64,000 nucleotides of DNA from Hypomesus transpacificus. Its lineage: Eukaryota. The notes under the pieces are model-generated. The model saw only the letters and a list, made by a program, of their open reading frames with translations, made no database searches and was not told the origin of the DNA. The translations under genes and the position numbers were made by a program. Where the stretch lies: NCBI RefSeq assembly GCF_021917145.1, contig NC_061076.1, positions 12,968,768 through 13,032,767 of the forward strand, read 5' to 3'. Positions 12,838 through 63,962 of this stretch are shown here, one piece after another; position 1 is the stretch's first letter; the number at the start of each line of letters is the position of its first letter.

Positions 12838-13135
12838 CGATTGCTTTGCCCTCAGTCGTTTACTTCGCAGCAGTTCTTGTGATTTGCAGCGTACCATTTG
12901 TGCCAAAAATAAGTAAACAAGATAATAAAAATAAGATGTTGCGTTTACGATGTGCCACTTCACCTGTCGTTTGCTGTGGTCGTTGCTTTTTTCTTTGGCT
13001 ATTGCTTTGCTCTCAGTCGTTTACTTTGCAGCGTTGCGTTTACAATGTTCCACTTCACCTGTCGTTTGCTGTGGTCGTTGCGTTTGTCTTTGCATCTTGA
13101 CAATCACGTGGATCTTTGCAGTTACTTGCAGTTAC
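12838..13135 (+). repeat. ~115-bp tandem repeat (about 2.5 copies), forming the outer part of the left palindrome arm
   Basis: 'attgctttgc.ctcagtcgtttact.cgcagc...ccacttcacctgtcgtttgctgtggtcgttgc' repeats. The reverse complement appears at 16590-16745. Confidence 0.7.
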
Positions 13136-13143
13136 GTAGTTAC

Positions 13144-33809: not shown

Positions 33810-34012
33810 TCAGGTGGCTGAGCGGTGAGGGAGTCGGGCTAGTAATCTAAAGGTCGCCAGTTCGATTCCTGGCCACACCATGACGTTGTGTCCTTGGGCA
33901 AGGCACTTCACCCTACTTGCCTCGGGGGGAATGTCCCTGTACTTACTGTAAGTCGCTCTGGATAAGAGCGTCTGCTAAATGACTAAATGTAAATGTAAGT
34001 GAAAGATTGAGC
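33810..34012 (+). mobile_element. tRNA-derived SINE
   Basis: Same family as 25065 and 44540. It is flanked by a ~125-bp direct duplication (33560-33720 and 34015-34140). Confidence 0.75.
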
Positions 34013-34155
34013 ACTCTTGAAGAAGAAAATTAAAATGCAAATAGGATGATTGATTACTAATTTAATTTATGAGTCAAATAATGCAGCCACATTCTTAAAA
34101 TGAAAAAGCATTTCTGCAAATGCATGTAAATTTTGGTAAAAAAAAAAATCCATAG

Positions 34156-34163
<8 letters not shown>

Positions 34164-34187
<24 letters not shown>

Positions 34188-34193
34188 TCACAA
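34164..34193. repeat. Poly(C) homopolymer of ~30 nt
   Basis: Direct reading of the sequence. Confidence 0.95.
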
Positions 34194-34261
34194 ACTCAAA
34201 TTTGGTCACTCTATATGAACAGCACGCAAAATAGGACTTTGACGTATGTATGGCACACGAA

Positions 34262-35690: not shown

Positions 35691-36049
35691 TAGATACGCA
35701 GAAGTATGAGACTGGTTACAACTGACATTTCGAGACCCAAAGAATGGCCACACGGGTACGCCGTAGACCCGGTCAGCAATTCCAAGTCTTTATCCTGGTC
35801 TATTGGGGCTAGCTGAGGAGACCGGAGACACATTCCGATTTTATCGCGAGAAAAAATGGGAACGAAGGACTAGGACAGGAGGCAGCAATATTCATATTTC
35901 AGGAACAACAACAACCGTTATAAAATGATGATTATAATGTAACTAAATGATAATCCAGTTATAACGCAATCGATGGATTGAAAATACTGGATTCTGAAAT
36001 ACAGGTAAAACATTCAAAATTACACATTGTCAATGCAACATTGCCAGTA

Positions 36050-39079: not shown

Positions 39080-39971
39080 GTAAGTTGAACCTGTTCCTAC
39101 TCATCGATTTTCGTTAGGACCAGACAGTTTTGGTGTTGCATTCATCTGCCTTGCTATCCTCTATATATATATATATATGTCTCTCAATATTGTGAAAAGA
39201 AAAAGAACATTGTCTATGCTTAGACTCACCTAATGCCTTTCAATGCAGGGTAAGTACAGTCCAGGAGAGTATTGAACGTTACGGAGTAACTGAAGTATGA
39301 GAAGTATAAGTCTCTGAAATTAAAGGCTGGGTTGTTTTTACTCAGTCCCATTCACGTTTCTGAATCCAGATAAGCAAGCCAACACACTTTAGTCTGTTCT
39401 GTCTGGCTTAAGTTTATGAGTAGGGTGGGATTTAAAAACGAATATATATTTAAATGCCAGATGAACAAGATTGGTGTAGTGGCATACTCGACACTGTATG
39501 ATTTGTATTTGAATTGTCAGTGAAGATCTGTTAATATAAATGTGAAAAAATAGATAGCACTACTTTCCTGGAGTCAAGATGAGTTGATGCCTGTTTGGGA
39601 CACAAAATTAAGTAAAACTGATAATGGACATTTTTTAAGGAAACTCTTTTTGCCAAATGGATGTGCAAAAAAGTAAATAAATCATGGTGTCTCACATTTA
39701 TTAGTATTACACTGGCTGCTAAGTGGTGTTAGATGGAGAAGATCATACCATGTAATTTTATTTCATTAATTTTGTTAGAGCTAGAGAGTTTGTCTGACCT
39801 ACAACTTTTTCTTAAGCTATCAACTGCAATGTGTGAATTTGAACAAAGTGGTTAGTGCATAGAATGTGTTGATAGTAGAGTGTTTACAGATGATCTTATG
39901 AAGACATTCTAAATATACATTTGACCGGTGTCTGGTGGTCATTCTTGACCTTTTTTGTGCCCACTTCCTAG

Positions 39972-40073
39972 TCCTCCAAGCCCAGGCTGACAGTCCAATG
40001 CTGCTCCATGGTAGACGTGAGAAGCACCACTGCTCTGGAGGTGCCTGACAAGGAGAACACCTTTCTCCTACAG
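39972..40073 (+). CDS. sh2b1: SH2B1 exon (PH domain)
   Basis: AG acceptor at 39970-71 and GT donor at 40074. Encodes '[34 protein letters not shown]', matching human '[34 protein letters not shown]'. Phase 0 is continuous with exon 1. Confidence 0.8.
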
Positions 40074-40360
40074 GTCAGGCATCATGCTTTTCTACCCTTA
40101 TCTTTCGTCTGCCACTCCCTCCTACTCTCTTTCTTTTTAAAATTTGTGTTCTTCTAAACAAAATGTCTTTAGTCCTCCCAAGTAAAAAAAACAAACAAAA
40201 AAAGGACAACCAAGTAGATTGCTGAAATTACACTTAAATTGTGTTAAATTGAAACCGCTTAATTTATACTTACTGTACTGACTGAGTTATATCTGAGATG
40301 TGCTTGAATACATTATAAATATATTTTACATGTATTTTTGATTACTTTTGTCTCCCTGTA

Positions 40361-44539: not shown

Positions 44540-44745
44540 ATGGGAATCAGATGGCTGAGCGGTGAGGGAGTCGGGCTAGTAATCAGAAGGTTGCCGGATC
44601 GATTCCCCGCCGTGCCAAATGACATTGTGTCCTTGGCAAGGCACTTCACCCTACTTGCCTCGGGGGGAATGTCCCTGTACTAACTGTAAGTCGCTCTGGA
44701 TAAGAGCTTCTGCTAAATGACTAAATGTAAATGTAGTTAGCAAAC
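44540..44745 (+). mobile_element. tRNA-derived SINE, preceded by an (act)n microsatellite
   Basis: 'gggaatcagatggctgagcggtgagggagtcgggctagtaatcagaaggttgccggatcgattcc...ctgtaagtcgctctggataagagcttctgctaaatgactaaatgtaaatgtag'. Confidence 0.75.
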
Positions 44746-44804: not shown

Positions 44805-45818
44805 GCAGGGCTCAACGTTAAACTGTTTTGCCACTGGCCCCACTGAGCCAGTGGGTTTGAAACGTACTGGCCCCAAGACCATTTTTCCTGGCCCCCCCTC
44901 CAAAAGTTGTAATTTTTCATTTTTACAACAAAACCAAAGACTTATTCGTTATGTTATTATTTTAACATGTTTAACCATTTATTAAACACATCCTGGATAT
45001 AAAAAGAACAAAAACTAAATCACATTTCTAGTGATAAAAAGTTAATAGTCAGCAAAACAATTGAGTTTTAACCTCAAACATGACGTGCTCTCTCCCCTGC
45101 TGACAGCCATCTCTGCACAACTCTGGCTGAAACTGTGAAACCTCTAGTCCCTCAATGCTATATATAAAAGCTTTCATAGCATTTCATCAGTATGATACTG
45201 AGTATGCAAGTCGACACCATTCTTCTGCTGCAGTTCAATAGCCCAGGGGAACGAGGCGAAAGGCTGTCCCGTCTTAATTATGTGATATGCCGTTGTTATA
45301 AGTCGTGCAATAACACGATGGGCTTGGATTGTCAACCAGCCGCTTAGCTGTCACGCAAACCAGGTGCTGTCTGCTATCAGCATGACTGGTCAGGGATTTT
45401 TTTTGAAAATTGTCGGTGCCTGTGTAAAAAAATCCACTTTTGTCTGCTTTAGACGGGAACCTACCACAGACGACATAGTTCATCTTAGTTACATAAAAAA
45501 AGTTGCTTCCGTTTGAGCTCGTAGCTCTCCTTCACTTCAGTGTCTCGCACCAGTTGTCAAAATGTATTGAGATTAGAGAATTACAATTTGACAACCACTC
45601 GTCACTCACTACTCAACTCTTGATTGGCCAACTTTGCGCCCACAAACTGCGAAGTTATTTATGCATTTAGCAGATAGCAAAACATGCAGGAAGTTTTACA
45701 ATGCAATTTTTTTTCAATCATTGCTTTGCAGTGGCCCGATCGGGACAGTGAGTTGCTAGTTTAATTGTCCCGACGTTACTTTTTACTGGCCCCGGACCAT
45801 CGTTATTGTCGAGCCCTG
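44805..45818. mobile_element. Putative hAT-like element (~1 kb) with TIR 'cagggctcaacg...tgtcgagccctg'
   Basis: Inverted termini of ~12 bp plus the subterminal 'tggcccc'. The TSD is imperfect (tcataatg / taatgaat). Confidence 0.35.
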
Positions 45819-46839
45819 TAATGAATGTGCTGCAATATGTTGTACAACTGAGAAAATTAGTACATTTTCTATTGTTGTCCTTAATGATGAGTCAATTATT
45901 GATTGTTAAAATGTTCATCTTTCGGTGAAGGAAAATGCACAACATTTGCAATCCTACTTAAAGTATATTAATATGTGGTCACTAATACTTTTAGTGAATT
46001 ATTAATATTAATACATGAAACTACAGAGTACACTGTAATCTGATTTTTGTAAAAGTTGTATATATTTACCGATGATACACTTAAAATATGTTAAGCAGAA
46101 AAGAACAAACAGCAAATCCAGATACTTAACTTGAAGCCAGAAGAAACTTGGTTTGAAATAGTGAAAATGTATATATGATATCAAACTTGAAAGTGTCTTA
46201 TTAAGCATCCACAACAATCTGAGTAAAAACAAACATTCTAAACTATTAAAAAACCTAGTTCAAAACCAGCTCATTTTTCAGTTTAGACCATTTCTCAAGA
46301 CTGTGTAGGCATGTCTGATAATGCTTTGATTGGCATCTCGACAGCTCCACCTATGTCAAACAATCTCTCATAGCAACAGTCACACCCATAATGTCTATAT
46401 TACTCCTGAGTAAAATAGATAGATAGTGCAATGGAGATAGATGCCACTCTCAAAGCTAGCACAATGAATACAATGCAAAATGATGGTTAGCTAGTGCCAT
46501 ATTGTTATTATAATTATCTTTGACTTGAGGTTTTGTTGCAGTTGCGCTTGTTGGAGGTGTGACAACTGACATGGATTGTTTCATTATTGGTTTGCAATAA
46601 TAATAATAATAATAAAAAAAAAAAAAATAATAATAAATACCCTAGCATAACCCCGCCCAATTCAAACCCACTATCAGGAACCATAAACAACGTCCGTGTA
46701 GGAGTTTTCATCATTACACTTCTATTATTAGCTTTTTTTCCTGATTCCTTTTCAGTGGTGAACAATACCTCCACAGTTTCTGTAAGAAAATAATTGATAT
46801 AAGGATGTGCCCTTGATAGACGAAACTGACACTTTCTAC

Positions 46840-47798
46840 TAGGGCTGTCCCCATTTAGTCGACTAGTCGATTTTCTGGTCGATATGCTTTTGGTCGACTA
46901 CGATTCTTTTAGTCGAGCGGCCATATGGCAGTGTGAGATCTCATTCCCCCTTGTGTCATAATTGTTGAATTAACAAAATGTTCAACAGAAATTGTAGATT
47001 ATATTATTTAAAACAAATAAACCAACTCTAAAAATATATAATTTAAAAGAAAAGGTGTTACTGTTTTCCCTTTCGTTAATCTGTGCTTTGTTTTGGTTTT
47101 GGTATTTTGCACACGGCACGAGCACAATTGGTTGCAGAACAACAAACTGCCATAGCCTACTTTGTCGGTGTTATTAGTCAAAATGGCAAAGAAATCTGTG
47201 GTAGGCTATGGCAGCATTTAATTAAAGTACATTTACAAAGTACCGGGTGACTCGAAAAACGTTGAATGCAAACTCTGCTAACAACGGTTAATTTTTCATA
47301 ATTCGACGTCGAATAGGATGTAGCCTACCACCTGAAAAACATAAGTTGGTCTAGCCCTACTTCGCTCATGCTAACGCAATGGGTTGAAGAATGAAAATGC
47401 CTATTATAAGAATCACATCAAAATCAAATGACATTATCTTCTCCGGCCAAGACAACAAAATCTTTCTCTGTTCGCATGCAGCAAGTTTTCAGGCAGTGAT
47501 ATACACTCTGATGATTTGCATGTTAAACAAACACATTTTTTATTTGTAGTACATTGTAAGACATACTAAATACCATCGGCATTCGGTTACAACAGGACTG
47601 GTGATACGAGTCTTATTATTAATAGGCTATTAGCGGCTGAATCTGCCATGTCCAGCAGCCATTGAGTCAGATCGCAAAAATGTTTGTACGTTTTACATTT
47701 TTTTAATTTTTTGCGTTTCAAAGTTCGATTAGTCGATTTTCAGACGTTTTAGTCGAGTTTTGGTCAACCAAAGAAAATCTTAGTCGGGGACAGCCCTA
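46840..47798. mobile_element. TIR element (~960 bp) with termini 'tagggctgtcccc...ggggacagcccta' and subterminal 'tagtcga' repeats
   Basis: A 13-bp perfect TIR. The flanking 8-mers are imperfect (ctttctac / tgtcatac). Confidence 0.55.
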
Positions 47799-48112
47799 TG
47801 TCATACGCATCCATTGTCCTAGCAACGCGTCATGGTTACGGTTAACAAGTTAGCTAAATAGCAAGAGCTAACCTAGAGAGCCATCCTATCAACCAACGTA
47901 GAATAAACCCAGATTCTAACCTACCTAAACATTTATTCAATAGAAACTCAAAGGTAGCAGGCAGACGACTTTATAGCTTTAATAATGCGTGTGTTTAGCA
48001 GCTACAGTGACAACATATATTAAAAAGGCTCTCCCTAATAAACATGAATAGACAACACCAGACAACTGTGGTTTTGCTTTTTCTGGCAGTCAATCATCAG
48101 TATAGCGCCTGT

Positions 48113-49397
48113 TAGGGATGCACGATAATATCTGCACGTCATCGGTATCGGCAGATAAAAGCTTCAAAACTTAATTATCGGCATCTGCAGATATGAAACT
48201 TTCTGCCGATGTACCTGGCCGATACGGTGACGTGCAAATTATGCGCACGCGAAGCAAATGTTTAATTAAGCAATAAGCCCGTCGCGTTGTGCCCAACAAC
48301 TCCCCTTACCTGTTCTAAAATCAGCGCAAAACATGGACTTGCAGGCCTTAATTCTTTTCTAAAACTGTTACTACAAATATTTGATATGGTTTCATAAATA
48401 AAAAAAATCAAATTTGAGAAGTAAAATAGTTTAACAATAAACCATCATTCTTCCGCCACTACAAAGTATAGTTCCTACATAAATCGTTGCCACGAAACAA
48501 ATTGAAAACAGTGGACGCCCCATATCGTCTTTATAGTGCCGGCTTCATTCCTTGCCTTTGCTAACGCTTCGATTTCAGTCTCTGTCTTCTCTGCATGCCT
48601 GGTCTTTTTAAACTCTTTCTCCTCCATTCTGTCAATAGTCTCCCACCACTCGTCAAACGTCAGCACACCCAGCGAATCAAAATACACAACAAATGTTGCC
48701 ATTCTCTTTACTCTTTACGACTAGGTTCGCCTGCTACCGTGTAACTTTGTAACGTCTTTTTTTTTATTTATTTTTTTATATTCGATGCGCAGTATTATGG
48801 ATTTTTATGTTATGAGGACAACTTGAAAGGTTATGCTGGATTTTACAACGGCATGGAACGCGATATAGCCAATCAGAATCAAGGATTGGAACAATCAGTT
48901 TTAGAAGTTACTATGAGCGCCAACAACATGATTCAACATGTCGGCTGTGTGGCAGGACTTCACAGTATCAAAGGATGATGACAAAAAGGCTATTTGCGGA
49001 GTTTGTAAAGTGTCAGTGATGCGATATATTTTAAGTTTACAGAGTTACAGCTGCATTTCTGTGCTTATGTGTCAAGAATGTGTCATTGTCAACAACACAG
49101 TTTTAAGGAAACTGTAGTTGTTCAAGTTCATGGAGGTACTGTTCAAGTATGAAAATTGTGAAGTGAAAATATAAATAAATCTGCCATATTTGAAATCATT
49201 TCAATAGTTTTCATGAGTGAATGTCTATTTTCTAAAATGATACAAATCAAGTTTTTAATGTCCCGTATCTACAGCAAGTACCCCATCATAATAACAGATT
49301 AATTCTAGTACAGGAGACACTTTTCAATAATTAAAAAGCAGAGCTGTATATATCGGCATATCGAATATCGGCTAAAATTCAATATCTTGCATCCCTA
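48113..49397. mobile_element. hAT element (1285 bp, non-autonomous) with a perfect 8-bp TSD 'gcgcctgt' and a BED zinc-finger remnant
   Basis: TSD at 48105-48112 and 49398-49405. The TIR is 'tagggatgcacgata...tcttgcatcccta'. A BED-finger-like peptide '...VWQDFTVSKDDDKKAICGVCKVSV' is encoded at ~48930-49010 (+). Confidence 0.75.
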
Positions 49398-49599
49398 GCG
49401 CCTGTATGTTTTCTTTTCAGGCGCTCGTGCATAGCGCAAGTGCTGCTTTGGTATGCCATTGCAACTTTGCACAGTGTACAAACCACCTTATTGTTTGATG
49501 ATAGCGTTAAGTCGAAGTATTCCCATACTTTTGAAGCCTCAGGTATTTGGGGACTCGGGTTTCGGAACCAAGTCAGACTCTGCTGCAGCTGCCATGATA

Positions 49600-49800
49600 T
49601 TTGAGCGTTGACTGGAGCCGACCAATGACTTGAGCCAACAACGACTGACGTCATGCAAGCACCAACTACGACCAACGAGTCGAAGAGCAGACGAGGAACC
49701 GGGTGGCGACGGGGAGGTGGAGGGTCGCGCACTTGATAGCATGGGCAAACTACACAGGGAGAGATTCGTATTTAAAAGGCACGGGATCATGTGACAGCGT
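49600..49800 (+). promoter_or_regulatory. Promoter-like CpG-rich segment with a CCAAT box (~49615), a CRE 'tgacgtca' (~49648) and a TATA-like 'gtatttaaaagg' (~49770)
   Basis: Canonical element spacing (CCAAT/CRE about 120 bp upstream of the TATA). The local sequence shows no CpG depletion. Confidence 0.3.
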
Positions 49801-50331
49801 TAATTGATAGACGGGAGCGCAACTCGAAGTGAACCCAAATGAAAGCCCGACATAGGAACAGAGGAAGGAGAGTGCTCTTAGCGGGAGGAGTGAGTAGTTG
49901 ACATCATCGAGTATGCCCGAGTGCAGGGATCGGTCTTGCCTGACTGAACTTGCGCTATGCTTCATCAGAAATAGGGCTGTACAAAATTTTGGGCCGTCTA
50001 TCAGCAGTGATTGTTAGAAAAGATATCGGGACGATAGCACGGACATGCACTTCACAGCTGAAGTAGTTCTAATTAATAAATAGTGGGTATGTTGAATGCT
50101 TAGCCTATCAAGATCAAATGAAGCAGACAATGTACATGCTTCCGAGAGGCCCCTTAATCAATAGGCTAAGGCTACTGACCATTTACAATAAATTGTTACG
50201 TAAATTATTAATTGGCAGCATTTATGCCATTTAGAACATACTTTATGACTGTAAGGTGTCATTAAGTAGCCTAACTTTATATTTTTTAGGGGAAATAGGA
50301 CAAAAATACGTGCAATATTACATTAGCTCTT

Positions 50332-50390: not shown

Positions 50391-51349
50391 CGGACAGACC
50401 TGCCCCCACTGCTAAAAAAAATCCTAGAGGAAAAACTGGACTTCTGTTATGAACTGAATGTTTAGATGTTTGAAATTTAAACCGACGCACAGACCTAGTT
50501 GGCTTTAGAAGGCTGTCACAAACAAGGTGTCAATCGATAGGGCAGAGTGTAGCAGCCATCTTGACACTCCAATGAGCGATAATGCGTGAGACACTGCAAA
50601 AATTGAATTGGCAAAGGCAGAATGACAAAACAAGATCGTGGCTATGTGCGGAAGTAATACATTGTTTTGGACAAACTACTTGACATGGTTAGATAGTTTG
50701 GACCTTTGGGAATGTAACCAGTCCATTTTTGTTGGGATGTTGTGCATACCTGGACCACGCTGATCCTTTTAGGGTGAGTAAAATTGTTTGCATTGTTGTT
50801 TACAGATTTATGACTGGACAAAGACGTTAGTAAAACTTGCTGTTGCGACTTGATCTTGAAATGGTTTTCTCAAGCACAAGAATCGTAGCTTTCCAGCGAT
50901 GTATGGCATGTGTAGCGGTCTAAAAAATATATTTGTTAGAATTTAGAGCGTAGTAACTGGGGGAGGAGGGGGCAGGCGGGCCCGGACCATAAAAAGGAAT
51001 TTGTTCACTTCAGTTTCCGATTCCATTTTTGTTCATTTTTTGCAGGAGCTAATATCGGAAACTACTAATGCTTCTACCAGCAGAACCAGATGGAACACCA
51101 TTAATAAAAAATGGTCAATGCTTACTCACAGCACCATGGTTTGAGCCACCGGTTTCCCAAACTGTAACTGAATTGCTCATAACATCACATAGTCGGGGTC
51201 ACCAAAACTGTAGGGGATTTAATATTGGCCAGCAACCAAAACTATTCCGCTATGGTTTAAAGGAAGAGGGGAAACTTAACAGTGTATTAACATAATTCAG
51301 TCAAGACAATCACGTATTAGATTTGAGCATTTATTGTTACATGACATGG

Positions 51350-54300
51350 ACATGTAGATTTACTTTGGCGGAGTGGATGATCTAAGGGAAGCACTCCCTG
51401 CCTCCTTGATGCAACACATACATGACAGATGAGGCAGGGAACAATAGAGATATAATCCCCCAAACACACGCCACCACTCCGCCATGCAGACTATGTGTAG
51501 AGCGGAGCGCCACTGCTCCTGAGCCACAGGAGGACCCCCTGACATCCCACTACGTACGTACTAGTGGCAAAAACAAGCGTTTTCTGGATGCGGGGGTCAT
51601 GCTAACATTAACGATGACTAAGACTATGTGTGCATATCCATCGCGTTACATACCATCTGATGTGCGGTTTACCGAGCCGTCCCACGCGCACATCCCGTCC
51701 AGACCCGGTGCTGGACGGAAGGTGAACCTGCGACAAGCCAAATACACCGACCATCTCCCCGGTACCCTTCTCATCCGACATCGGGTAGATAGCTACCTCC
51801 AGAGAGCTGCCCCTCTTTGCGCCCGTCAGCGAACCCATCAGGATGTACACAAAGACAGCATGTACGCCGGAACACGAAGATATGCTTCTCTAGTGAGAAT
51901 GACTAGTGTCAGCAGAGCACCTGCTGTTCCCTGGCCGGTATTCAGGGTGTCTCCGCAGATATCTTGACTCGGACGCTGGATTCTGATCGATTGCTACCAA
52001 ATCAGAGCACGTCTGCGGATCACCAGTGCTGAGCCAAGATCTACAGAGACATTCTACAATGCTTGTGATCCGGTAACCTCTCATCCATACAGGGCAGAGT
52101 TACAGCTGTCTATAGAGACCCATTCCTCTAGCGCCCGTCGGCAACCCCAAAGATGTACGTGAGGCGCATGTTGTACCATCAGTGTTCCTATGTGAGAATG
52201 AGATAAACAAATGTGTCGGCAGAGCACCCGCCATTCCCTGGAGTCCAGGGCATCTCTAGAGATATCTCGATTCAGACACTATGGATTATGATTGATAGCT
52301 ACCAGATCAGAGCACGTCTGCGGATCACCACGCCTAAACCGAGATCTAAAGAGATATTCTACTGTTGTGGGTTAACAAGCCGACCCAGTCGCCATCTGTA
52401 ATGCAGGCTCGTGTATTGACACACTGCGATTAGTCCTTTGACCACATGGCCGCAAGCTCGTTCACGTCAAGCTCATAGATCTCTGGACTCCTACGATGTC
52501 CAGGGCATTGGGGCGTACATGGCGCTCGTAAGCCGAGGACGACCAGTCCCCATCATTCCAGCGTGGCTAGGCACTTGAAGATGCCCAGGTGGCAGCCCCA
52601 ATCCGGAAGCTTTGCGATGTATACCAATCCTGGGACAGCCCACAGCGAATCGTTGAGCGAACCAGGATTTCGTCATGGCCTTGCCGGCATCAGTGACAAC
52701 AGGGACTCGGAAGGCGGGACTCGGAAGGCGTCACCCCGGGCGACACGGCGTGACATAGGAGAGTGGACAAAACGCAGTTAGATCGAGAAATCACAATAGA
52801 GGCACCTTGCAAAGTATCAGGTTGGAATGTTCAGGACACTAAACGTTCACTGCACAATAGTGGTGAATTCCCCACACCGTGAAACATTAAAAGGTTGTGA
52901 AAACACTGACTCGAGTGTTATCGCGGTATAGGGCCCCAGTACCCTTGATCAGTCGGACACCAGTAATTTGAAGAGCATAGCCCTATGACAAGCAATGTCA
53001 CGGAAGGCTCACATAAGTGGCCCTCGACCAACATAACCCTCAGTGGCCTATGTGCAAGATGGGTAGATGATAGTAGACGTAATCTTGATCCGAATTCTGC
53101 TCTCTTGGCCCGTTCAGCAGCTTGCTGTGGGCTCCAAACACCTTAATTGAACACCCCAACCAGTGTGTAACACGTCTGCGCTGTGCGCTCATTGCCCCTG
53201 CTTAGACCACAAAGTTGCATCCTTCATCCATCAGTGTGGATTGAAAAACGTCCTCATGTATTCGCCGGCAGACAACATAGGCCTACATGTGCACCGCGCA
53301 CTCACCCCGGCCTAAGGTCTAGCACCGTCCGAGAAATGGCGGCATGCTTGCCTATCGGAACTCCTGAAATGAACAAGACAGTGCGCCACACCGTCTCTAT
53401 AGCCTGAAAGAATGCGGTGCGCAATGAGATTCCCACACTCTGGTCTGCAAGTGAGCAGTCTGACTAGATTGATATGCACAGACCTCCTTATGATGTGGAC
53501 CTTGCTTCGATATTATAACAGTAAACTTTTTCCTAAGCAATAACAAGCATCACGATGGAATGCAATTCATGTAAAGCCGTGAGATATGTCTCAAGAGCCA
53601 GGAAGTAACCCCGTGGCCACAAGGCCTTGTCCGGAGAGCTCGATAACCCCCACCAACCTAAAGAGGCGCAGGACGACTCCATGGAATCGTGATAAAATAC
53701 CCGAAGCCGCGCCAAAGGCCGCACAGCCCACCCAGAACGTATATCCGACCGCACCAGTCGTGTACACCATCATGAAAACTAGCACGGGTTGAGAAGTCCA
53801 ACAGACGGGACACGAACTCTGGGGCACGATGCATGCATAGAAGCGGTGCCCGAGCGGCCACCACGACGCAGAGGACACGCTCCGAGGGTAACGACGCCCG
53901 CATGAAACGCTATCAGGAAATGCCGAGACACCTAGAGGCAGCGCGGGTGGAGATCACGGAACATCTTGACAATCGTCCAGCAGGTGCACGATGCCGACTG
54001 GTGCTCATTACCAGGATCCAACATGGAGCCACCGACAGCATGTCGATGTGTGCGGGCCGCTGCGGCGGCCGATACCACCGAGAGTAGGCTACAGCTGCCG
54101 CCCACTGACGCCAATTAGGTGCCACTGAGAGGCATGCAGCAGAATGCGCGGACCACCGGTCGTTGACCTGCAGGCAGCCTGAGAAATAGCTGTCTACTTG
54201 AGATGTGAATGCCAGAGTTAAATCCAGTCCCTCAGAACAGAGACGGGAGGGACCGTTGCAATCGTTTGGTTTCTCGTAACTGATAACCTATGTACTCGCG

Positions 54301-56320
54301 GTGAATCTAAATATTGGCACTCGGAATAAAGCGTCTGCTAAATGACCAATGTACCGCAGTCACATTAACACTGATGATGTCAGTCATCCCAACCTGCAGA
54401 GACCCATTTCCGGGTGGCGGCTTCTCCCACCGGGAACTCCCGGGAGACGTGGAATGTCTGTATCGGAGTATATTGAGTACTATTGGATTCAGACACCTAA
54501 AATGATGGTTCGACTACAGTTTGTAAATTGAAATGTACAGTATATATGTTTTACCTCCCAAAAAATCCCAGACCTTATACAATGTATTTATGTATTATTT
54601 TCAGCACTACCACTAGTAACACTAAATCAACACTTGGTCCAAGGGTTCTTCCCAAACTACCTCAGAAAGGTGGGGTTAATCTCATTCAGTTTTTATATCA
54701 AATACAATTCAATATAGTAGTGCATTTGTACACGCGGTGAATCTGAATATTGGCTTCTCCCGCCCGGAACTCCCGGGAGACTTGGAATGTCTGTCTTGAC
54801 AGTTTCAAAGCATGTATGCAGATAGACGTACCTTCATGCGATGGTGCAACAGTACCCATCGACCCACTAGCCTATAGCCACAGCGTAGGGGCACTCTGAC
54901 GGCCCATCACACGTCAAATACACCCGCAACGATTTGCATAGCCACACTCCGCAAACTTAGATGCGTGAGTCCAATTATCCCCACGCTCCCACAGCATGAG
55001 TACGGTGGGGCCCACAGCTTGCTAGCTTGTTCCTTCCGGCAAGTACCTAGCATGACACTCGTAGCTAGCAACGCTAGACGCTGGTGTTTACCGTTACGGT
55101 ACCCTCTTGCCAGAGGCCCATATGTTTTGCCACACCAGCGTAGTGCATAGAGCTTGATAACCGTATGTCTATTGGACGTTCATTTGAAATGTCCGAAGTC
55201 ACTCATCCGAGATGGTAGTCTACGCTGTGGGCCCACACACGACGATAGACAGATACTGTGACGCTACTCAACTGGTTAACCGATAATATAGGGATACCAT
55301 ATTTCACCTTAGTATGTATTTGACGTTTGAAGTAATTTGGCTGCCTTAACATCTGCCCGGAGACAGCAGACGAATTTAGCGTCTCTGGCTAACTGCTCAA
55401 TACACTTTCTATTGATCAGTGCGCACCCCTGAAATAAAGAAAATTACAATGAACAATATTGGCAAGCTGTTACGTAAGCACCGGCTAATACATTCCCGAA
55501 ATCCGAGTATTCCGTTGCACAGCGTATACTACTGAATGCCATGGCAATCAAGCAATACAATCGATTTAAAGAGCCGCAGATACACAACCCTCTCATTCGG
55601 GTTCGCCATTCCTGATTACCAGCCGGTGGTGTCCTAAGACACGGTACCACGTCATTCCTCCCCTGAAGTCAATGCGAAGTCGAAGGCCACGGGAGCGCCT
55701 CCGAAGCAGTAACGGGGATCGGCGGATCCACCACTGTCGTCGACCCCTCCTCCAGCGCAACGACCCGAGCACTCGTTTCCGCCAGAGACCTCGACGTCCA
55801 GAGGGGCCAACAGCACCGGGTATTCCTCCCTGGACCAGAGCATTCTCAGCGGGCACCGTTCGGGAAGAGAAGGAAGAAGAAAGGAGCGGCCTTGCAGCAC
55901 TCCACAAACGTGCAGTTCATCATGATTACACTCAAGGAAAGAGACACGACCAAGACATAGTAGAGTCCAGGATGCGTTGAACCGCCAATCCTGGTAGTAG
56001 GCGATCTTTGAGCCGACGCGAGTTACGCCGGGCCTGGCTACCTGCATCGTCGCAACCGCTGTCGGGGTGGTTGTCAGAGGCTGCGAATCCAGGCGAATGC
56101 CCGAAACCTCCCGCAAACACCCCCAACAACAACAGGCCACCCCCGGATCGCAAGAGCCGGACACAGCAACACAGGCGAAAGCAACAACCGACAACGCAGG
56201 AATACAAACACATTGGCATGGGTGTGGTAGTGGGAGGAGTAAGGAAGGTGGAGTAAGACGCCTTACGTCCCCGATCACTGACTGACGCGCGCTGCCCGAT
56301 TGCCCTGCCAGAACTAGCTG
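51350..56320. other. ~5 kb non-coding block without CpG depletion and with internal subrepeats, of unknown identity
   Basis: A hand count in sampled stretches gives CpG o/e of about 1.3-1.5, against under 0.4 in flanking intron and exon sequence. There are no A/T homopolymers or microsatellites. All six frames have frequent stops and the longest ORF is 223 aa. The block contains a ~300-bp tandem duplication (51780-52080 / 52085-52390) and dispersed subrepeats (54290-54500 / 54730-54800). Confidence 0.5.
51780..52390 (+). repeat. ~300-bp subrepeat ×2 inside the CpG-rich block
   Basis: '...tgtgagaatga...gtc.gcagagcacc.gc..ttccctgg....cagg...tctc...gatatct.gattc.gacact..ggatt.tgattgat.gctacca.atcagagcacgtctgcggatcacca...' occurs twice. 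Confidence 0.65.
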
Positions 56321-59249
56321 CACTTATTTAAGACAATACAATGGAAATTGCAGGTAAATCATAGCAAAAATTTTCAAAATAAGGTTAAATGAAATAGATA
56401 TTATTTGAACATTGCAAATGAATGCAATCAATAACAAGGCACAAAATGAAGGTTGACTTGTACCTACTCTACCTTGATTATTGTTAACCAGAGAGAGAAA
56501 GCAAGAAGTGAGGAAGGAGTAGGACAAGCCAGAGCTGATGTGATGCCCTCAAGAGATGAAGAATCCAAAGAACAATGCTTTACAATTCCCTTTATACACA
56601 AGAACAACCAAATTAGACCACATCTTGACCCTTGATTATCAACATATGACTAGCAATGCCACAGTAAGTTACGCAATGAGGTTTGAAACCTATCAAGCAG
56701 AGACTCCGTCCAGAAACTACAGATTTGAGAATATGAGAGGTGGGAGTAGGGTGACACCCAGCCTTACAGTTCTAAAAAACATTAGCCCTTGATAGCAGTC
56801 TGTCGCTGGTCTGGCCTCCAATTCTTGCCTCCAACTCGATGTTGTGACTAGATCAAAAATAATTAATTAATGTTGGTCACATATTTCTTTCACCAAGACA
56901 ATTATGAATGCTTGTGTCAGTGAATTTTTCATATATGCTATATCTTCACCATCTTGTACGTTCAGAAGAGTCCACGTTGCCAGGTTGCTAGGCTTGAGCT
57001 GAACTATGGCAGCTGTTGGAGGTTGTTGGTCGGGCCTGTGAATACTCTGTTATGATTTTAATAAAATATTTAAAACCATCAATCAGCATGTCTTTATCAG
57101 TGTAATATTAACCTGTTTTTGGTCCTGTCGCGCCCGCAAGTCAGAAACGCTGCCCCTCCCTCCCTCAGTTACGACGCACTAAATTCTAACAAATATTTGT
57201 CTTAGACTGCTACACATGATACATAATTGGAAAGCTACGATTCTTGTGCCTCCATTGAAATAAACCATTTCAATATCAAGTCGCAACAGCAAATACAGTC
57301 AATGTCTTTGTCCGGTGACCAATATATAAACAAAGCCAAGGCAAAAAGTTGTACTCACCCTAAAAGGTTCATTTTGGTCCAGGTATGCAAACAACCCATC
57401 GAAACTTGATCTGCTTACATTCCCATGAGGTAAAATGGAATTTAAATATTATACAAGGCCGGAATTCCACACCGACACAAAAAAATGCCATCTGGACCGA
57501 AATTACAAATTCCAGTAAGTGTAACATTGCATGGCTGCTTAATCTAATGATTTTGTGTTCACTCAACTGAAAAAGTGAGATCCTTCTCTCAAAAATACTT
57601 TCTGCTCATCTCCTTGGCCTATGTCTTCGTCTTGCTCGGATTACTGCTGCCATTTCACCAAGAGGCATATGCGAGGATACCCGTATCCTGGTTTACACAT
57701 GCTTTTAAGACACGCAGAATTTAAAGGAAGTACAGGAGTAGCCTCATGACACCCAGGCAGACAAAGGTGCATGTAGTTCAAAGCTGTGTTTCTCAACTTG
57801 TGGGTCCTGACTAGGGATGGGGATAAATATTTTTTTATCAATATCAATACAATTTTCGAGACTGCCTAACGATCCGAGTCTTTATCGATACCACTATCGA
57901 TACTTTTCTGGGGTAAGCTTGAGCTAACCACCATCTAAATGAATGATTTTGGCAAATGTTAAACATATAGCAGCACCCACACAACCCACGCCACACTTTA
58001 TGTAAACAAGATTACTGAACAACATTTACAACAATAACTTAAGTAAAACAGATGTCAAATAGAAGAAGGGGAACGTGTTGCTCTCAGGAGGAGGCTGGAT
58101 AAAAGGATGGATCCTGGCTCTGGCTTAATCTACAATTGTCCACTACAGATGTACTATCCACAACCTGGATGAGTAACTAGTATAAATGACTGTGATTGGT
58201 TGGTTGACAAAAAGTGACATTGACAAGCCGTCATTGTTCAAGACTTTATGAAAACAAAAGGCACCTGATATAGCTAAATGACCAACTAACCACCCCCCAA
58301 ACCTTCCTTTTCCCATCCCTATTTTGTTCTGTCTGTGTTATTGTTTAACAAGATGTCTAAGCAGCCCACAGAGCCATGCTCCTGGTGACTATGTTTTGAA
58401 TGATCAGCAGCGGGGCGGGGGAGGCTAGTCTTAACTCACACAATGACTGTGCTTGTAAAAATCTGGTTCCCTCACACATCAAATTTTAGGGGCATATGTG
58501 AGTGAAATAGTTGCACTGTAGAACCCTGGCTCTTTTTATTGAGGCTTATTATTGTCAACGATGGATACTTGCTACGAAGTTGGGGCGCGCTGACTGCGCT
58601 CATCATGCATATCTTGGGTGGAGGAGGAGGATTGGCCGGCAGCTGGAGTTGGCACCTTTGCTTCTCAAAGACAGTCGAATGTATTTTACTTTTAGCTGAC
58701 GCACAACGTTGAGGAGTAGTGTTCCCCCCCTTACAAGAAATGATCTTCGAACGTATATTACACGTCGCTTCGTCCTTATCTTTGGCTTTATTAAAATGTA
58801 GCCAAGCCTTTGATCGCTTAGTACAGGGGTGGCTAACCAATCCAGCATAAACAGCCCACACAAACGCACCATAGCAAAGAGCCGCACATGCACGCCTGCA
58901 CTACAATAGCGGCTTACAGATCTAATGACAGTCATAATACAAAGCATAACAGTTTTTCTACGACCGCACAGTGCCTTGCGCCATTGGGGGCCTCGCGCCT
59001 GCCTGGTTTGCAATCACCAAAAAAAAATCTACTTTCAATATTTTTTTATTCCTGTTCTTGACTCGATGTGCTTTAAAATGAAATTCCTGTTTGTCTAAAA
59101 ATCTAATGTATTTTTTTCGTTCATGATTTACGTTACACCACAGGACGTTGGTGCACGCCTACGGGCGTTAGAGCAGCTGAATATTGGTTTTAAAAGCAAA
59201 TTTGCTTCTAAATAACTAAACAGAATTTTCGTATTTTCCGTACTATGCT

Positions 59250-59760
59250 TATGTAACAGACGTGGTATTGCAAGTTCCGTCAGAGGTATATGGGCCACTG
59301 TCCGCTCCGAACGGGAGTCGAACTCACCACCTCTGACTTCCCAAGCGCCACCACTACCAACTACGCCAACGAAAAGCTAGCAATTTGTTGACGCGGGTGG
59401 CCTGTTACATACTAGAGGTGGTGAGTTTGACTCCCGTTCGGAGCGGACAGTGGCCCGTATACCTCTGACGGAACTTGCAATACCACGTCTGTTACACTGG
59501 TGCCGTGACCCGGATCACTAGGTTAGCATCAGCTAGCTGGCCGGAGTAAGTTTGAGGGGTAAATGTAGCCGGTGTGTGGTGAAACTCACTCCTCAAGTAT
59601 GTAACAGGCCACCCGCGTCAATGAATTGCTAGCTTTTCGTTGGCGTAGTTGGTAGTGGTGGCGCTTGGGAAGTCAGAGGTGGTGAGTTCGACTCCCATTC
59701 GGAGCGGACAGTGGCCCGTATTCCTCTGACGGAACTTGCAATACCATGTCTGTTACACTT
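59250..59760. repeat. Repeat family D cluster: a palindromic pair (59250-59400 inverted, 59400-59512 direct) plus a direct copy (59580-59760)
   Basis: 59262-59400 is the reverse complement of 59590-59760. A further copy lies at 16745-16880. Each unit ends in 'cctctgacggaacttgcaataccacgtctgttacac'. Confidence 0.65.
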
Positions 59761-62700
59761 AGTTTCATTTCAATTCGCTGCAAACCAGAGGACCAATCAG
59801 AGTGAGGGGGCTGGGACGCGAAGAGAGCAAGCAAAACCTGCGGTGTCATTTTGTATTTGTAACATATTGGCTGACATGCATTGCACGCGTTTTTCTCTCC
59901 TTCATTGCTGACTTTTTTTTTGCCTTAGGCGCTAGGGATTTGTCATAGGCGCTTGGGAAAACGACTTTGGCGCACGCCAAAATTTTCTCTATGCAGGAAA
60001 AACCCTGCCTTCTAAACACCAAGAGCTCTGGATTTTCTTGGTGGTTGGTGACAATTTGAAGAGAGCGTGTCTCTTGAGTGCTGGTTGTGGTTGCAAGCGA
60101 GCAACTGGTGAGAGTGTTTATAATTTACGTTTCCAAACTTAGTTGTGAAGTTTTTAGCACAGACCTTACCTTACTCTGCCTTTGCATTGTTTGCAAAATG
60201 ATATGGGGTCATGCCAAGGCAAAAGGCATTAACCTCCATTTCATCGCTCACTTGGTTGTTGATCAATGGGGTTAAATGCTGCTAAATACAATGTTTGGGA
60301 CTATAGGTCGCAAATGACACGCTTTACCTTCTTCGATTAGACTACAATGGAAGTCTATGGAAGTGTCCCAACTCTCTTTTTATATGGCTCTGTGTCTACC
60401 TAGCTTTGACTACCAAGCCTTTTAATCCGTGGCATGCATACATAGTCTATAATGTCCCAGAATTTTTTGAAAATATTAACTATAACTAGATACATGTTTC
60501 TAAACTATTTGTTCTAGTTCTATCAGAGTGAAAGTTGCTAGTTGTCTAATATTAACTGTTTAGTCAGTGGCGTTTTTAGACATAAAACTGTACTGGGGCA
60601 CAGGCCCCTATATTATATTGCGCACAATGCACTATTAGGCTATAGAAACTCCCCTCGCTTAACCCACTATGTAACAGTAAGCAAGATTGATAATAAAAAT
60701 TAAAGATTAAAAATAAAAATTAATTGATAATTTAATATCAGCCTAAACTGTACAACAGAACGTTATATCGAATTCAACCAACACAATCGCTACCAAGACG
60801 AACACAGTCTAGTACTGTACTGAAGTAGTACAATTTACCGGGGCAGCTTCTCCATACAGGGCTATATCGCATTTTGCCTTGTTACTGACAATGATCGCTA
60901 CCACTGAGATTTTCATGAATGAGGGATTTTCCCCTATATAAATGTCAAGCTTATTTAAGTTTTTGGGGGCATATTTTCAGTTAGCAGATGGTACTATTTG
61001 AATCGCGATTCCATCTGAGATAGCTACTGCTGGTAACGTTGTTGTTAAAATAAGATTCAAAGGGGGTTCTTTATTAATGAATGAATGCAATATGATTAGG
61101 CTATATGCCTGAAAATATCACGAGAAGGGAAAAACTTAAAATGACGTGTAAGTCATAGAGATTAGGTCTATTTTTACACCGGTCTGCCAAATGTATTCCT
61201 TTTGATTCAATTGAGGCTGCTGATCACCATTCCCTCTTGCAGGGGAAATGAGAAAACAACTATTCCATTCTAGCCTACTCTTCACTCTTGAGTTGTAAAT
61301 GACCAGAAAAAAATCTACTTTTAAATCTATGTCATCTTTATAAATAACAAGTAGGCTATGCATTTTTTATGTAAAATATACAGAAATATCAGTTGTAAAA
61401 ATGTCATTTAAATACGGATCCCTCTGGAACCGAAGCAAGCAAGCACACCCTACAATTTCCCCAGAAATTGTACCCTCTCTAGTTATTATTATTATACATC
61501 TTCTTCTGCCATGGGAGTCTATGGCAGCCCCTAGAACCGTAGTTTCAGAAGTTGTGAAATTTGGCACACTCTTTGGGGCCAGTCCCCTCATCAATGTCAC
61601 CAAGTTTTTTGTCTCCACTTCAAACCGTCTAGCGCCACCAATGGGTCAAAGTTGGAGATGTGTTTACACATGTTACTTTTGACCCACTTGTCTCATTTTC
61701 GAAAATGAGGTATTGTTGTATTCCCTGAATCAAGACGAGTCCAAGACTATGACGTCATACCCAGTTATATAGATTTTCCTCCATTTCGAATGTTGAGGAA
61801 AAGCATTTTTTTAACTACTCCTACAATTTCTGTCGAATCTTCTTCAAAATTGCCACAGGATTGCCACACTATGGATTTCTGATTTTCGAAATCGTTTGTT
61901 AGTTACAGCCAATCAAATTGATGTGGCCGCCATTTTGATAAAGGGAATATTAAGTATTTTTCGCTACCCCTCCTATAAAGTTGGCACAGGCACTCTTCAG
62001 ACCAAGCCTCACAAAAGACATCACATGTTTTTTTGATTTTCTAAACCTTTTGACTGGAACAGCCAATCAAAGTTGTCAACCAAACCACCATAAAAGAAGT
62101 GAGGTCATATCTCAGCACCTCTTTACTGCATTGACACCAAACTTTGTATAAGGACGAGGGACCCTGTTCTAAAGAGGTCCAATAGGTCATGCCATTTCAC
62201 CTCTAGGTGGCAAAAATTTGCAGACTGCTATGACTTTTCAGCTTTCTATCTCCTATGTCTGAAACTGCAGAATTTTTTGATAGTTGAATGGTTTTAATAG
62301 CTGAAGTATTGAAGGCGCTTAAGGGTGTCACGGAAGAAATAGAAGAAGTTGAATAAAGATTCAAAGAATAATACTTAGAATGCTGAAGCAGTATTCCAAC
62401 AATAAACCAGTTTTTTGTATTTTTTCCTCCCCTTGCCCAATAAGAATCGATAAGACAATCAATAAGGAATCAAATTGATAAGCAGAAATTGATAAGAAAT
62501 CGGAATTGTTAAACTCTTATCTCATCCCTAATCCTCACACAAACTATCAAAATTATCTTAGATTTTCAAAACGGTTTGATCGGTAAAGCCAATCAAAATC
62601 CGGCAAACAGGAAGTTGGGTCGTATCTCAGCAAATCTTTGGTGAATCAAAGCTGCATTTACTCAGAACCCTGTTCTGAGGATGTCTAAAATGTTTTTCGT

Positions 62701-63120
62701 TCATGTTACCTGCTTTACTGGCTTGGACACCTCATTGCTGCTTGCAACTATATTTGACCATGATTTATTTTTTATGTTAGGGGAAGCTGAGCTTACCTTA
62801 CAGTCTTAAAGAAATTGCCACTGGTTGATAATATCAAACTATGTATTTATAGACCAACTGCAGTCTAAACACAATATGTGTGACATACTATAGGCTATAA
62901 AAAAGTTACATTTTGCTGAATGATTGAAGGGCTAGACAACAAACATTCTAATGAAATAATTACAGACTAACAACACAGAAATGAAAGACGCCATCTAATG
63001 ATCTTGACGTGTCAGGAACAATGTCCCTGTCTGAAGACTTGGAGGTAATTTGACCCCCTGTCGACGAGTAGGGTAAACCAGTTTAGCACTTCTAGTGTTG
63101 ATCATGTTTTCTGTTTGTCA

Positions 63121-63212
63121 GTTGGAAGGGCCGGCGCAGTACGTGATTGAGACGCGAGATGCTGTTCAGATGAGGGCATGGCTGAGTGACATCAGGAACG
63201 GCATCTGCCTGA
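63121..63212 (+). CDS. sh2b1: SH2B1 exon (end of the PH domain)
   Basis: Acceptor tcAG at 63119-20 and donor GTGAGC at 63213. Encodes 'LEGPAQYVIETRDAVQMRAWLSDIRNGICL', matching '[28 protein letters not shown]'. Confidence 0.75.
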
Positions 63213-63400
63213 GGTGAGCATGGAGACTAGACCCAGTCTGGGCACTAGACCCAGTCTGGAGATTAGACCCAGCCTGGAGACTAGACCAAACCTGCTGACC
63301 AGACCCAGCCTCACTGCCCATGCTGTGACATCCGAAAGGACTAGATCCAAATCAGACAGACTAGGACCATCTTGCTAAAATCCCTTTCTTTTCTCTACAG

Positions 63401-63477
63401 TGAACAGGATGAAGGTGTATGGGGGGGGCAGATGGACATCAGTGCAACGCCTGAGTTTGGGGACCGCCTCTCCCAAG
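63401..63477 (+). CDS. sh2b1: SH2B1 exon
   Basis: Acceptor ctacAG at 63399-400 and donor GTGTGT at 63478. Encodes '(S)EQDEGVWGGQMDISATPEFGDRLSQ(G)', matching the human '...NDRLSQG'. Confidence 0.7.
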
Positions 63478-63627
63478 GTGTGTATTGACACTAGAATCCC
63501 AGTAATGCTGTAGGATTGACAACTGCCCACCAAACACAACAAATCTCCCATGAAGGGCCTCTACTCACATTGACAGAATCTAATACTTGTCATGTATTTC
63601 CTCTCATCTGCTTGCGTCACGGTGCAG

Positions 63628-63774
63628 TGTGTTACGGAGGTGTCGGTGGCTCCTCCCCCTTGAAGGACCCTCTCCCACCAGAGTTACCGCCCCGAGCCCC
63701 TCTCGATGAATCAGAGAGCCGCGGTGGCGGGGCAAGTCTAGGTACACCTTTTGCAGAGACACCAGATGCCACAG
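63628..63774 (+). CDS. sh2b1: SH2B1 exon
   Basis: Acceptor gtgcAG at 63626-27 and donor GTGAGT at 63775. Encodes 'VCYGGVGGSSPLKDPLPPELPPRAPLDESE...TPFAETPDAT(G)', matching the human 'LLPPELPPRIPIEEG...DTPETATG'. Confidence 0.75.
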
Positions 63775-63962
63775 GTGAGTACTACTGCTCGTTTTTTGTG
63801 TGGAGGGGTGGGTTAGGGTTTGATTTTCTATTTTCAAAAGAGGGCCTGACATAAAGAACTTTGAGTTTGAGAGCCACTGACAAAACCATTGAGCTGGCCA
63901 AAGAGCTAGGATGAGTTAGCATGAAGAGCAAAGGGGTTAATCAGCAGCTTCCTCCTCCTCAG

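Follow-up and report, generated by a model that had tools for sequence, protein, structure and literature searches.

A young, non-autonomous and probably Helentron-like transposon in an SH2B1 intron of Hypomesus transpacificus

Introduction

Helitron2/Helentron-type elements (HLE2) insert at a T^T target without a target-site duplication (TSD) (PMC11417382, PMC4067079), and Helentrons are common in fish (PMC4067079, PMC11417382). HINEs contain internal repeats and code for no protein (PMC4067079). Tandem arrays and joined ends are known for Helitrons (PMC5148889, PMC4067079).

Here we describe a CpG-rich block in a 64,000-nucleotide stretch of the Hypomesus transpacificus genome (contig NC_061076.1; hereafter the window) that shares much with these elements. 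Like HINE and DINE-1-like elements, it is protein-free, lacks a TSD and has T^T-compatible junctions; its 5' terminus forms a short inverted repeat with a 3' subterminal sequence; and internal tandem repeats, ends-only deletion derivatives and head-to-tail copies are all found in its family. It differs from HINEs in the length of the window copy, which at 5 kb far exceeds that of typical HINEs, in having neither an evident 3' stem-loop nor terminal multi-T runs, and in the imperfection of its inverted repeat.

Results

The window carries SH2B1 exon 1, which is 100% identical to that of Hypomesus transpacificus SH2B1, and the block lies within a 23-kb SH2B1 intron bracketed by exons at ~40088 and 63119, where the initial annotation had placed it. 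The orthologous introns of Osmerus mordax (locus L001) and O. eperlanus (L002) contain an exact empty site, ACATAATT^ATGCC, across which both loci align with no base lost or duplicated. Therefore, window positions 51298-56329 are a 5032-bp insertion without TSD. This lineage-specific insertion has exact boundaries, its junctions being base-exact against two independent assemblies. The abrupt edges and the discrete block reported by the initial annotation are thus real, with the limits now refined; the comparison with relatives that it had called for shows the block to be absent from both Osmerus sites. The features of the window copy (W) are as follows.

51290-51297, no strand: left flank of the insertion site, ACATAATT, in Osmerus joined directly to the right flank at 56330.
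51298-56329, plus strand: the mobile element copy W, 5032 bp, CAGTCAAGACAATCACG...CTAGCTGCACTTATTT, delimited by the Osmerus empty sites and by the same termini in the L001 and L002 copies.
51297-51312, plus strand: 5' terminal inverted repeat TCAGTCAAGACAATCA, invariant in 4/4 copies and complementary to the 3' subterminal 16-mer at 11-14/16 positions.
51298-51470, plus strand: conserved 5' terminal region of ~170 nt, 93-95% identical across genera, its first 62 nt invariant.
51395-51440, plus strand: hairpin with a 10-bp stem, TCCCTGCCTC ... GAGGCAGGGA, within the 5' terminal region, both arms invariant in 4/4 copies.
51759-52362, plus strand: "central repeats", a tandem pair of diverged units of ~305 bp (~51759-52057 and 52070-52362), both present in the O. 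mordax copy.
53757-56216, plus strand: interior of ~2.5 kb confined to the window copy, non-coding and CpG-rich, with no counterpart across the three loci.
54291-54794, plus strand: 68-bp direct repeat pair (54291-54318 plus 54419-54461 versus 54727-54794) that brackets an AT-rich 265-bp stretch.
56217-56329, plus strand: conserved 3' terminal region of ~115 nt, 86-89% identical to the Osmerus copies; the flanks are unrelated.
56297-56312, plus strand: 3' subterminal inverted repeat CGATTGCCCTGCCAGA (TGATTGCCTTGCCTGA in the copy that preserves it best), which pairs with the 5' terminus.
56313-56329, plus strand: 17-nt tail ACTAGCTGCACTTATTT after the 3' subterminal repeat.

Since one terminal T can be assigned to either end, a T^T model puts the unit at 51297-56328. 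The ~170-nt 5' region is kept even by a 434-bp deletion derivative described below; as a whole it folds no better than shuffled sequences (z = -0.9). Between orthologs, the ~305-bp units are ~85% identical, and between paralogs 69-78%; Tandem Repeats Finder (TRF) misses them because they are 22-30% diverged. The ~300-bp subrepeats noticed in the initial annotation correspond to 51906-52057 and 52213-52362, which match at 78% with a spacing of ~305 bp, and a second pair lies near 54291-54794. There, the first copy of the 68-bp repeat is split by a 100-bp insert that contains a UnaL2-type LINE/SINE tail fragment (54319-54346).

Related copies occur in both Osmerus genomes, in the same intron as the window copy, at a different site that is empty in the window. 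The O. mordax copy (L001 65754-68558, 2805 bp) and one O. eperlanus copy (L002 65893-67928, 2036 bp) have both termini in common with the window copy; another O. eperlanus copy (L002 65459-65892, 434 bp) consists of the two ends only. The two O. eperlanus copies form an exact head-to-tail dimer (L002 65459-67928), at whose junction ...CTTATTT is followed directly by CAGTCAAG... The ends, with 93-95% (5') and 86-89% (3') identity between copies, are better conserved than the interior (~85%) or the orthologous neutral flanks (88-90%). The copies thus share their ends, include one head-to-tail dimer and have a non-coding body, and the block is a non-autonomous transposon that is young rather than decayed. 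The family is seen in three osmerid genomes of the genera Hypomesus and Osmerus; it looks Helentron-like and, in both lineages, was active once Hypomesus and Osmerus had split. Our sample comprises four copies at two sites in one intron, very few events from which to judge copy number or target preference; a search for more osmerid sequence with a transposon reverse transcriptase gave no osmerid hit.

The oddity of the block is its GC content combined with its CpG density, not its CpG observed/expected ratio (o/e) alone. Its GC content is 0.515, where 5-kb windows elsewhere in the window average 0.41 and reach at most 0.47, and it has 5.6 CpGs per 100 bp against 2.45 elsewhere. The initial annotation had put CpG at or above expectation; with an o/e of 0.85 this was overstated, yet the value is higher than the 0.57 of the remaining window. 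Nor is CpG depletion uniform outside the block as had been supposed: the non-overlapping 5-kb window 45251-50282 also reaches 0.84, and several 1-kb bins lie at 0.9-1.3. The reported lack of simple repeats and runs held up, with homopolymer runs of >=5 at 2.2 per kb in the block versus 6.2 per kb and a single 14-bp x2.1 repeat found by TRF. The O. mordax copy is similar in composition (GC 0.51, CpG o/e 0.86, versus 0.60 for its locus). Between copies, CpG sites differ at 0.28 and other sites at 0.096, about three times less, and the flanking intron shows the same ratio (0.25-0.33 at CpG sites, 0.06-0.08 at others). Since this ratio is equal in copies and flanks, the CpG richness would be a residue of youth and not protection from methylation, which suggests that methylation is eroding the CpGs of the window copy at its usual rate. 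The CpG union of two aligned copies gives an o/e of ~1.1.

The initial annotation's view that the block carries no coding signal was borne out. Its longest open frame has 222 codons (157 +/- 31 in Markov-shuffled sequence), and translation with the alternative code tables 2-27 did not reveal a long frame. Six-frame translation of 50600-57500 had zero Pfam matches at E<=1, and no frame of the window copy gave a Helitron_like_N or PIF1 signal. When all 39 open segments of at least 60 aa were concatenated and compared with 5.8 billion protein clusters, no homolog came up, and an exact-product look-up of the two longest ORFs found no record. For 50500-57500, Rfam returned no rRNA or other family, at the gathering threshold or at E<=1. 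The viral-database comparison that had been suggested yielded no viral, phage or plasmid match for the block: blastn against phages and plasmids found none, and exact scans of viral (IMG/VR) and metagenome contigs with conserved 23-30-mers were likewise empty, a weak test as these collections are poor in fish DNA. A literature search for Hypomesus and Helitron returned nothing specific.

The termini were compared with the features of HLE2. The empty site reads ACATAAT^TATGCC and the window ACATAAT[TCAGTC...CTTATT]TAAGAC, as expected for insertion at T^T without TSD; the Osmerus copy, CATCAGT[TCAGTC...CTTATT]TACGG, and the dimer junction, where CTTATT directly adjoins TCAGTC, are both T^T-compatible, in an assignment that uses the one-base ambiguity at the ends and covers two independent sites. 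A short inverted repeat between the 5' terminus and the 3' subterminal region, as in HLE2, is present: the 16-mer situated 17 nt from the 3' end, once reverse-complemented, matches TCAGTCAAGACAATCA at 14/16 positions in L002 B, 13/16 in L001, 12/16 in L002 A and 11/16 in the window copy. An anchored match of 14/16 has a probability of ~3.5e-5 by chance; the repeat of the window copy is imperfect and the weakest of the four, its 11/16 not being significant alone. As in HINEs, a non-coding body has central repeats (window and L001 copies) and head-to-tail tandem copies occur (the L002 dimer). The 3' stem-loop that follows the right repeat in HLE2 was not found, the 17-nt tail ACTAGCTGCACTTATTT containing no palindrome. 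Folding energies of the terminal 60 nt are only -1.6 to -6.2 kcal/mol, with structures that differ among copies, and the 130-nt 3' end folds no better than shuffles (z = -0.26).

Other transposon classes were examined as well. Canonical Helitrons (HLE1) resemble the element in the 5' TC (on the T^T reading), the absence of a TSD, the non-autonomous, non-coding state and the tandem arrays; they were rejected, as the smelt element ends in ...CTTATT(T) instead of CTRR, is flanked by T/T or T/A instead of sitting at an A^T target, and has no hairpin of 16-20 nt ~11 nt from the 3' end on either strand. TIR (cut-and-paste DDE) and LTR classes were rejected on the lack of a TSD at the exact empty site and of terminal direct repeats. 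A hAT-like 8-bp TSD, AAGACAAT, mismatches in the 3' flank of the Osmerus copy and is ruled out because every copy carries the 8-mer inside the element.

Discussion

Based on the ends, the inverted repeat, the T^T-compatible junctions, the ~305-bp repeats and the absence of ORFs, the best fit is a non-autonomous Helentron/Helitron2. We consider it somewhat probable that the element is a protein-free, HINE-like rolling-circle element of the HLE2 type, and we infer its rolling-circle class and a transposase acting in trans. Under this scheme, a Rep/helicase transposase whose gene lies at another genomic locus would recognise the conserved ends and peel off one strand; the peeled strand would then give a circular or concatemeric intermediate, which would be pasted between two T's with no target duplication. 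The GC and CpG richness could be explained if the source element was not CpG-depleted and the window copy is young, and the copy may simply reside passively in the SH2B1 intron. There is no indication of an effect of the insertion on SH2B1.

A tentative second reading, which we judge clearly less probable, is that the block is a young repeat copy of a non-autonomous element that is not rolling-circle and belongs to another or an unclassified class without TSD, for example a Crypton- or DIRS-like one that a tyrosine recombinase mobilises by way of a circular intermediate. An insertion with shared ends, no TSD and a head-to-tail junction is equally expected from a circle integrated by a recombinase, since Crypton and DIRS/Ngaro elements likewise lack a TSD and a circular intermediate could yield exact head-to-tail junctions; that the HLE2 3' hairpin is not evident also favors it. 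However, the 16-nt inverted repeat between the 5' terminus and the 3' subterminal region, together with T^T junctions, is HLE2-specific and unexpected for Cryptons or DIRS, which have no such terminal/subterminal repeat. The block showed none of the split direct repeats typical of DIRS/Ngaro elements, and the smelt element differs further in lacking a recombinase ORF and an internal complementary region. It is also unlikely that the family is an undescribed no-TSD mobile group of osmerid fishes whose ancestor was essentially not CpG-depleted; an ancestral o/e of ~1.1 would then suggest that it was acquired horizontally, and recently, from a donor genome with little CpG methylation. Less likely still, given the lack of the expected 3' hairpin, is a way of transposing that falls outside the Helitron-like classes described so far.

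Of the initial annotation's identification, the discrete, recent, non-coding insertion stands, its four proposed identities are not supported, and the transposon reading it had set aside is the supported one. The block formally passes the usual length, GC and CpG o/e thresholds of a vertebrate CpG island (GC 0.515, o/e 0.85); a large unmethylated island or non-coding RNA locus of the SH2B1 intron is nonetheless very improbable, as the block is lineage-specific and mobile, with the orthologous site empty in two Osmerus species and same-ended copies elsewhere, and its CpG divergence (0.28 versus 0.096 at other sites) stands in the ratio of the flanking intron, with no Rfam match. We give equally little credence to a transposed fragment resembling an rDNA intergenic spacer. 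Like such a spacer, the block is non-coding and CpG-rich with ~300-bp subrepeats, but Rfam detects neither rRNA nor another family in it or beside it at E<=1, and independent copies that agree in their conserved ends and carry a terminal inverted repeat are unlike a random piece of spacer. The sharp difference in composition between block and flanks might suggest foreign DNA (bacterial, viral or vector) or an assembly chimera, which we regard as the least probable reading of all: the block has no ORFs and no match among phages, plasmids, IMG/VR or metagenome contigs, it contains the host-type UnaL2-tail fragment, its family occurs in three osmerids including two independently assembled Osmerus genomes, and its junctions are base-exact against the empty sites there.

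An intronic 5-kb stretch of fish DNA that is rich in CpG and lacks ORFs does not have to be an island, contamination or of foreign origin. Set against two genomes of the sister genus, the block proved to be a recent transposon insertion, which cleared up the anomaly; the element is ordinary and young. The insertion could mark a lineage or population in delta smelt, an endangered species, and the annotation of smelt transposable elements gains a non-autonomous family represented by four copies and two empty sites, with its boundaries placed exactly.

Insertion in the SH2B1 intron

The large ORF at 37349-39076 of the window is SH2B1 exon 1; it encodes the Phe_ZIP domain and is 100% identical to H. 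transpacificus XP_046893502.1 and 97-98% identical to two Osmerus proteins. Further SH2B1 exons lie at:

~39942-40088
63119-63211
63336-63791

Therefore, the GC- and CpG-rich block lies inside a 23-kb intron, where the initial annotation had placed it. We compared this region with complete SH2B1 loci from O. mordax (L001) and O. eperlanus (L002). The left (window 50519-51297) and right (56330-57121) flanks are contiguous in both Osmerus loci, at 88-90% identity. The junction alignments are exact: The empty site in Osmerus reads ...GTATTAACATAATT/ATGCCAATACAATGG..., the filled site in the window reads ...GTATTAACATAATT[5032 bp]AAGACAATACAATGG..., and no bases are duplicated or lost relative to Osmerus. 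These alignments show that window 51298-56329 is an insertion in the Hypomesus lineage, without target-site duplication (TSD). Because the junctions are base-exact against two independent assemblies, the assembly chimera that had been suggested is excluded.

An 8-mer, AAGACAAT, occurs within the 5' end of the element (51303-51310) and again where the 3' flank begins (56330-56337), at which Osmerus has ATGCCAAT. We rejected it as an 8-bp TSD, since every copy carries this mimic within the element; its recurrence would reflect either chance or microhomology at integration.

Relatives in Osmerus

A relative of the block, 2805 bp long (L001 65754-68558), lies in the same intron of O. mordax, ~20 kb downstream. 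It is 93% identical to the window copy over the first ~190 nt, 85% across the following 1.3 kb, weakly similar in the middle (61-73%) and 86% identical in the final 114 nt. At the orthologous place, O. eperlanus has two copies (L002-A and L002-B):

L002 65459-65892, 434-bp derivative reduced to ~170 nt of the 5' end and ~213 nt of the 3' end
L002 65893-67928, 2036-bp copy directly abutting the 434-bp derivative

Their junction, ...GCGCTTATTT/CAGTCAAGAC..., joins the exact 3' end to the 5' end, making L002 65459-67928 an exact head-to-tail dimer. Since O. mordax carries the single 2805-bp copy at this site, the array was altered after O. mordax and O. eperlanus had diverged. The site is empty in the window: 60116-60168 replaces ~4.2 kb of L001 (~65491-69716) that consists of a 1.4-kb Osmerus-specific element (CACTT...AAGTG ends) with the family copy nested in it. 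This ~1.4-kb host element looks CACTA/CMC-like, with a possible 3-4-bp duplication, ACC/GACC. Copies with shared ends at different sites in each lineage show that the block belongs to a mobile family, and that the family was active in both the Hypomesus and Osmerus lineages after their split.

The insertion in the window is enclosed by a 279-bp inverted repeat, 80% complementary (arms 50707-50975 and 57150-57425), with AT-rich spacers of 322 and 820 bp between it and the arms. O. mordax has the left arm and the inter-arm sequence but no block there, and O. eperlanus has the left arm as well; the right arm was not located in Osmerus. The repeat is therefore an older element of foldback or TIR type that received the block; given the Osmerus copy inside the ~1.4-kb element, each of the two insertion sites known for the family lies within another repeat.

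Conserved ends

In alignments of the four 5' and four 3' ends, unrelated flanks switch sharply to near-invariant element sequence, and the first 62 nt are identical in 4/4 copies. Identity is 93-95% at the 5' ends, 86-89% at the 3' ends and ~85% in the interior; the ends are better conserved than the interior and neutral flanks, and the shortest derivative (434 bp) retains the ends only. This pattern is the signature of cis-acting transposition sequences. The 5'-terminal 16-mer, TCAGTCAAGACAATCA, is complementary to a 16-mer located 17 nt from the 3' end, at 14/16 positions in L002-B, 13/16 in L001, 12/16 in L002-A and 11/16 in the window copy (chance of 14/16, anchored, within 150 nt, ~3.5e-5). 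Two variable positions of the 3' 16-mer are C/T differences among copies, and one of them falls at a CpG. Such differences would be in keeping with the decay of dead copies.

The conserved 5' end also contains a perfect 10-bp inverted repeat, TCCCTGCCTC / GAGGCAGGGA (window 51395-51404 / 51431-51440), which may be a cis-acting hairpin. Both arms are invariant in all four copies and hence offer no variation for covariation.

Composition and coding content

The window is fish-like overall (GC ~0.41), with a CpG o/e of 0.57 outside the block. The block has a GC of 0.515, against a mean of 0.41 and a maximum of 0.47 for 5-kb windows elsewhere. Its CpG density is 5.6 per 100 bp, with 2.45 elsewhere, and it is poor in AA and TT dinucleotides and in homopolymer runs. 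Its CpG o/e is 0.85, i.e., below expectation, while the 5-kb window 45251-50282 (GC 0.39) reaches 0.84 and several 1-kb bins outside reach 0.9-1.3. The initial annotation, in which the block kept CpG at or above expectation and the rest was typically depleted, therefore overstated both points. Stretches with ordinary GC (0.37-0.47) and an o/e of 0.84-1.3 are 45251-50282, 13001-14000, 34001-36000, 47001-49000 and 59001-60000; at least one of these (13142-13891) is a repeat that recurs in the Osmerus loci at 85-86% identity. Among young repeats of this genome, CpG that is relatively undepleted seems to be common.

The reported absence of coding signal was borne out. At 222 codons, the longest open frame in the block compares with 157 +/- 31 for first-order Markov shuffles; none of the alternative genetic codes opened a frame. 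Pfam gave zero matches at E<=1 to the six-frame translation of 50600-57500, and all 39 open segments of at least 60 aa, concatenated, found no homolog among 5.8 billion protein clusters. The subrepeats noted earlier are real: 51906-52057 matches 52213-52362 at 78%, a spacing of ~305 bp. A 68-bp repeat pair lies around 54291-54794, one copy of which is interrupted by a 100-bp insert that holds a partial, host-type UnaL2-type tail (54319-54346). Three full UnaL2 LINE 3' elements (Rfam RF00436) occur in the window, at 25198-25251, 33935-33988 and 44673-44726.

CpG history of the family

The O. mordax copy has a GC of 0.51 and a CpG o/e of 0.86, in a locus at 0.60; this composition is therefore a property of the family, not of the site. 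Over the 1.44 kb in which the window copy can be aligned with that of O. mordax, differences amount to 0.28 at CpG-context sites and 0.096 at others, against 0.25-0.33 and 0.06-0.08 in the orthologous flanks. By this comparison, CpG sites have diverged between the copies just as in ordinary methylated intron, and nothing suggests protection. The same 1.44 kb holds 48 shared and 28 + 22 private CpGs; their union of 98 would imply an ancestral o/e of ~1.1, an upper bound. The source element would thus have been essentially not CpG-depleted, with 0.85 in the block a residual. Such a source could possibly reflect fast turnover of master copies or an origin by recent horizontal transfer.

Class assignment

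Of the identities first proposed, an unmethylated island or non-coding RNA locus is contradicted on two counts: The orthologous sites are empty, and the copies diverge at CpG sites. An rDNA spacer fits poorly: The block has no rRNA signal and nothing in Rfam at E<=1, and a spacer fragment would not be expected to recur as independent copies that share identical ends and an inverted repeat. Against foreign or viral DNA stand the lack of ORFs, the host UnaL2-tail fragment inside and the relatives in three osmerid genomes; phage, plasmid, IMG/VR and metagenome sequences gave no matches to the block. We are confident that the block is a young non-autonomous mobile element insertion, whatever its class.

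Neither LTRs nor a TSD was found in the block. A canonical Helitron was rejected, as the 3' CTRR, A^T target and subterminal hairpin are absent on both strands. Non-autonomous forms of Helitron2/Helentron (HLE2) are the HINE or DINE-1-like elements. By published definitions, HLE2 elements insert between T and T without a TSD; their inverted repeats span 12-16 nt, the right one is followed by a 3' stem-loop, central repeats are present, and copies form tandem arrays or have joined ends (PMC4067079, PMC11417382, PMC5148889). Similarly, the notation T[TCAGTC...CTTATT]T can accommodate the two independent insertions as well as the dimer junction, the terminal and subterminal 16-mers pair at 11-14/16, the body is protein-free with two ~305-bp internal repeats, which are older than the split of the copies, and the exact head-to-tail dimer fits. 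However, the 17-nt 3' tail lacks a palindrome, the termini fold no better than shuffled sequence, and the window copy exceeds the usual length of a HINE. On balance, we lean towards a non-autonomous HLE2 family, and the block is an ordinary biological feature, a young, non-autonomous transposon copy, probably of Helentron type, in an intron. That it belongs to another TSD-less or unclassified mobile class is a tentative alternative. We consider it unlikely that it represents an undescribed TSD-less family whose CpG-undepleted ancestry suggests horizontal transfer, or a variant mechanism without the 3' hairpin.

Other retroelements in the window

546-2222 and 6474-6995, LINE endonuclease and reverse-transcriptase ORFs
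14908-15513, 19181-19966 (-), 20000-21526 and 23574-23978 (+), PF00078-type reverse-transcriptase ORFs with a run of further + strand ORFs beside them

The near-identical 173-175-aa ORFs at 1695-2222 and 6474-6995, ~4.8 kb apart, point to two recent copies of one LINE. The 19181-19966 ORF has its best database matches at 83-87% identity. Retroelements are dense upstream of SH2B1.
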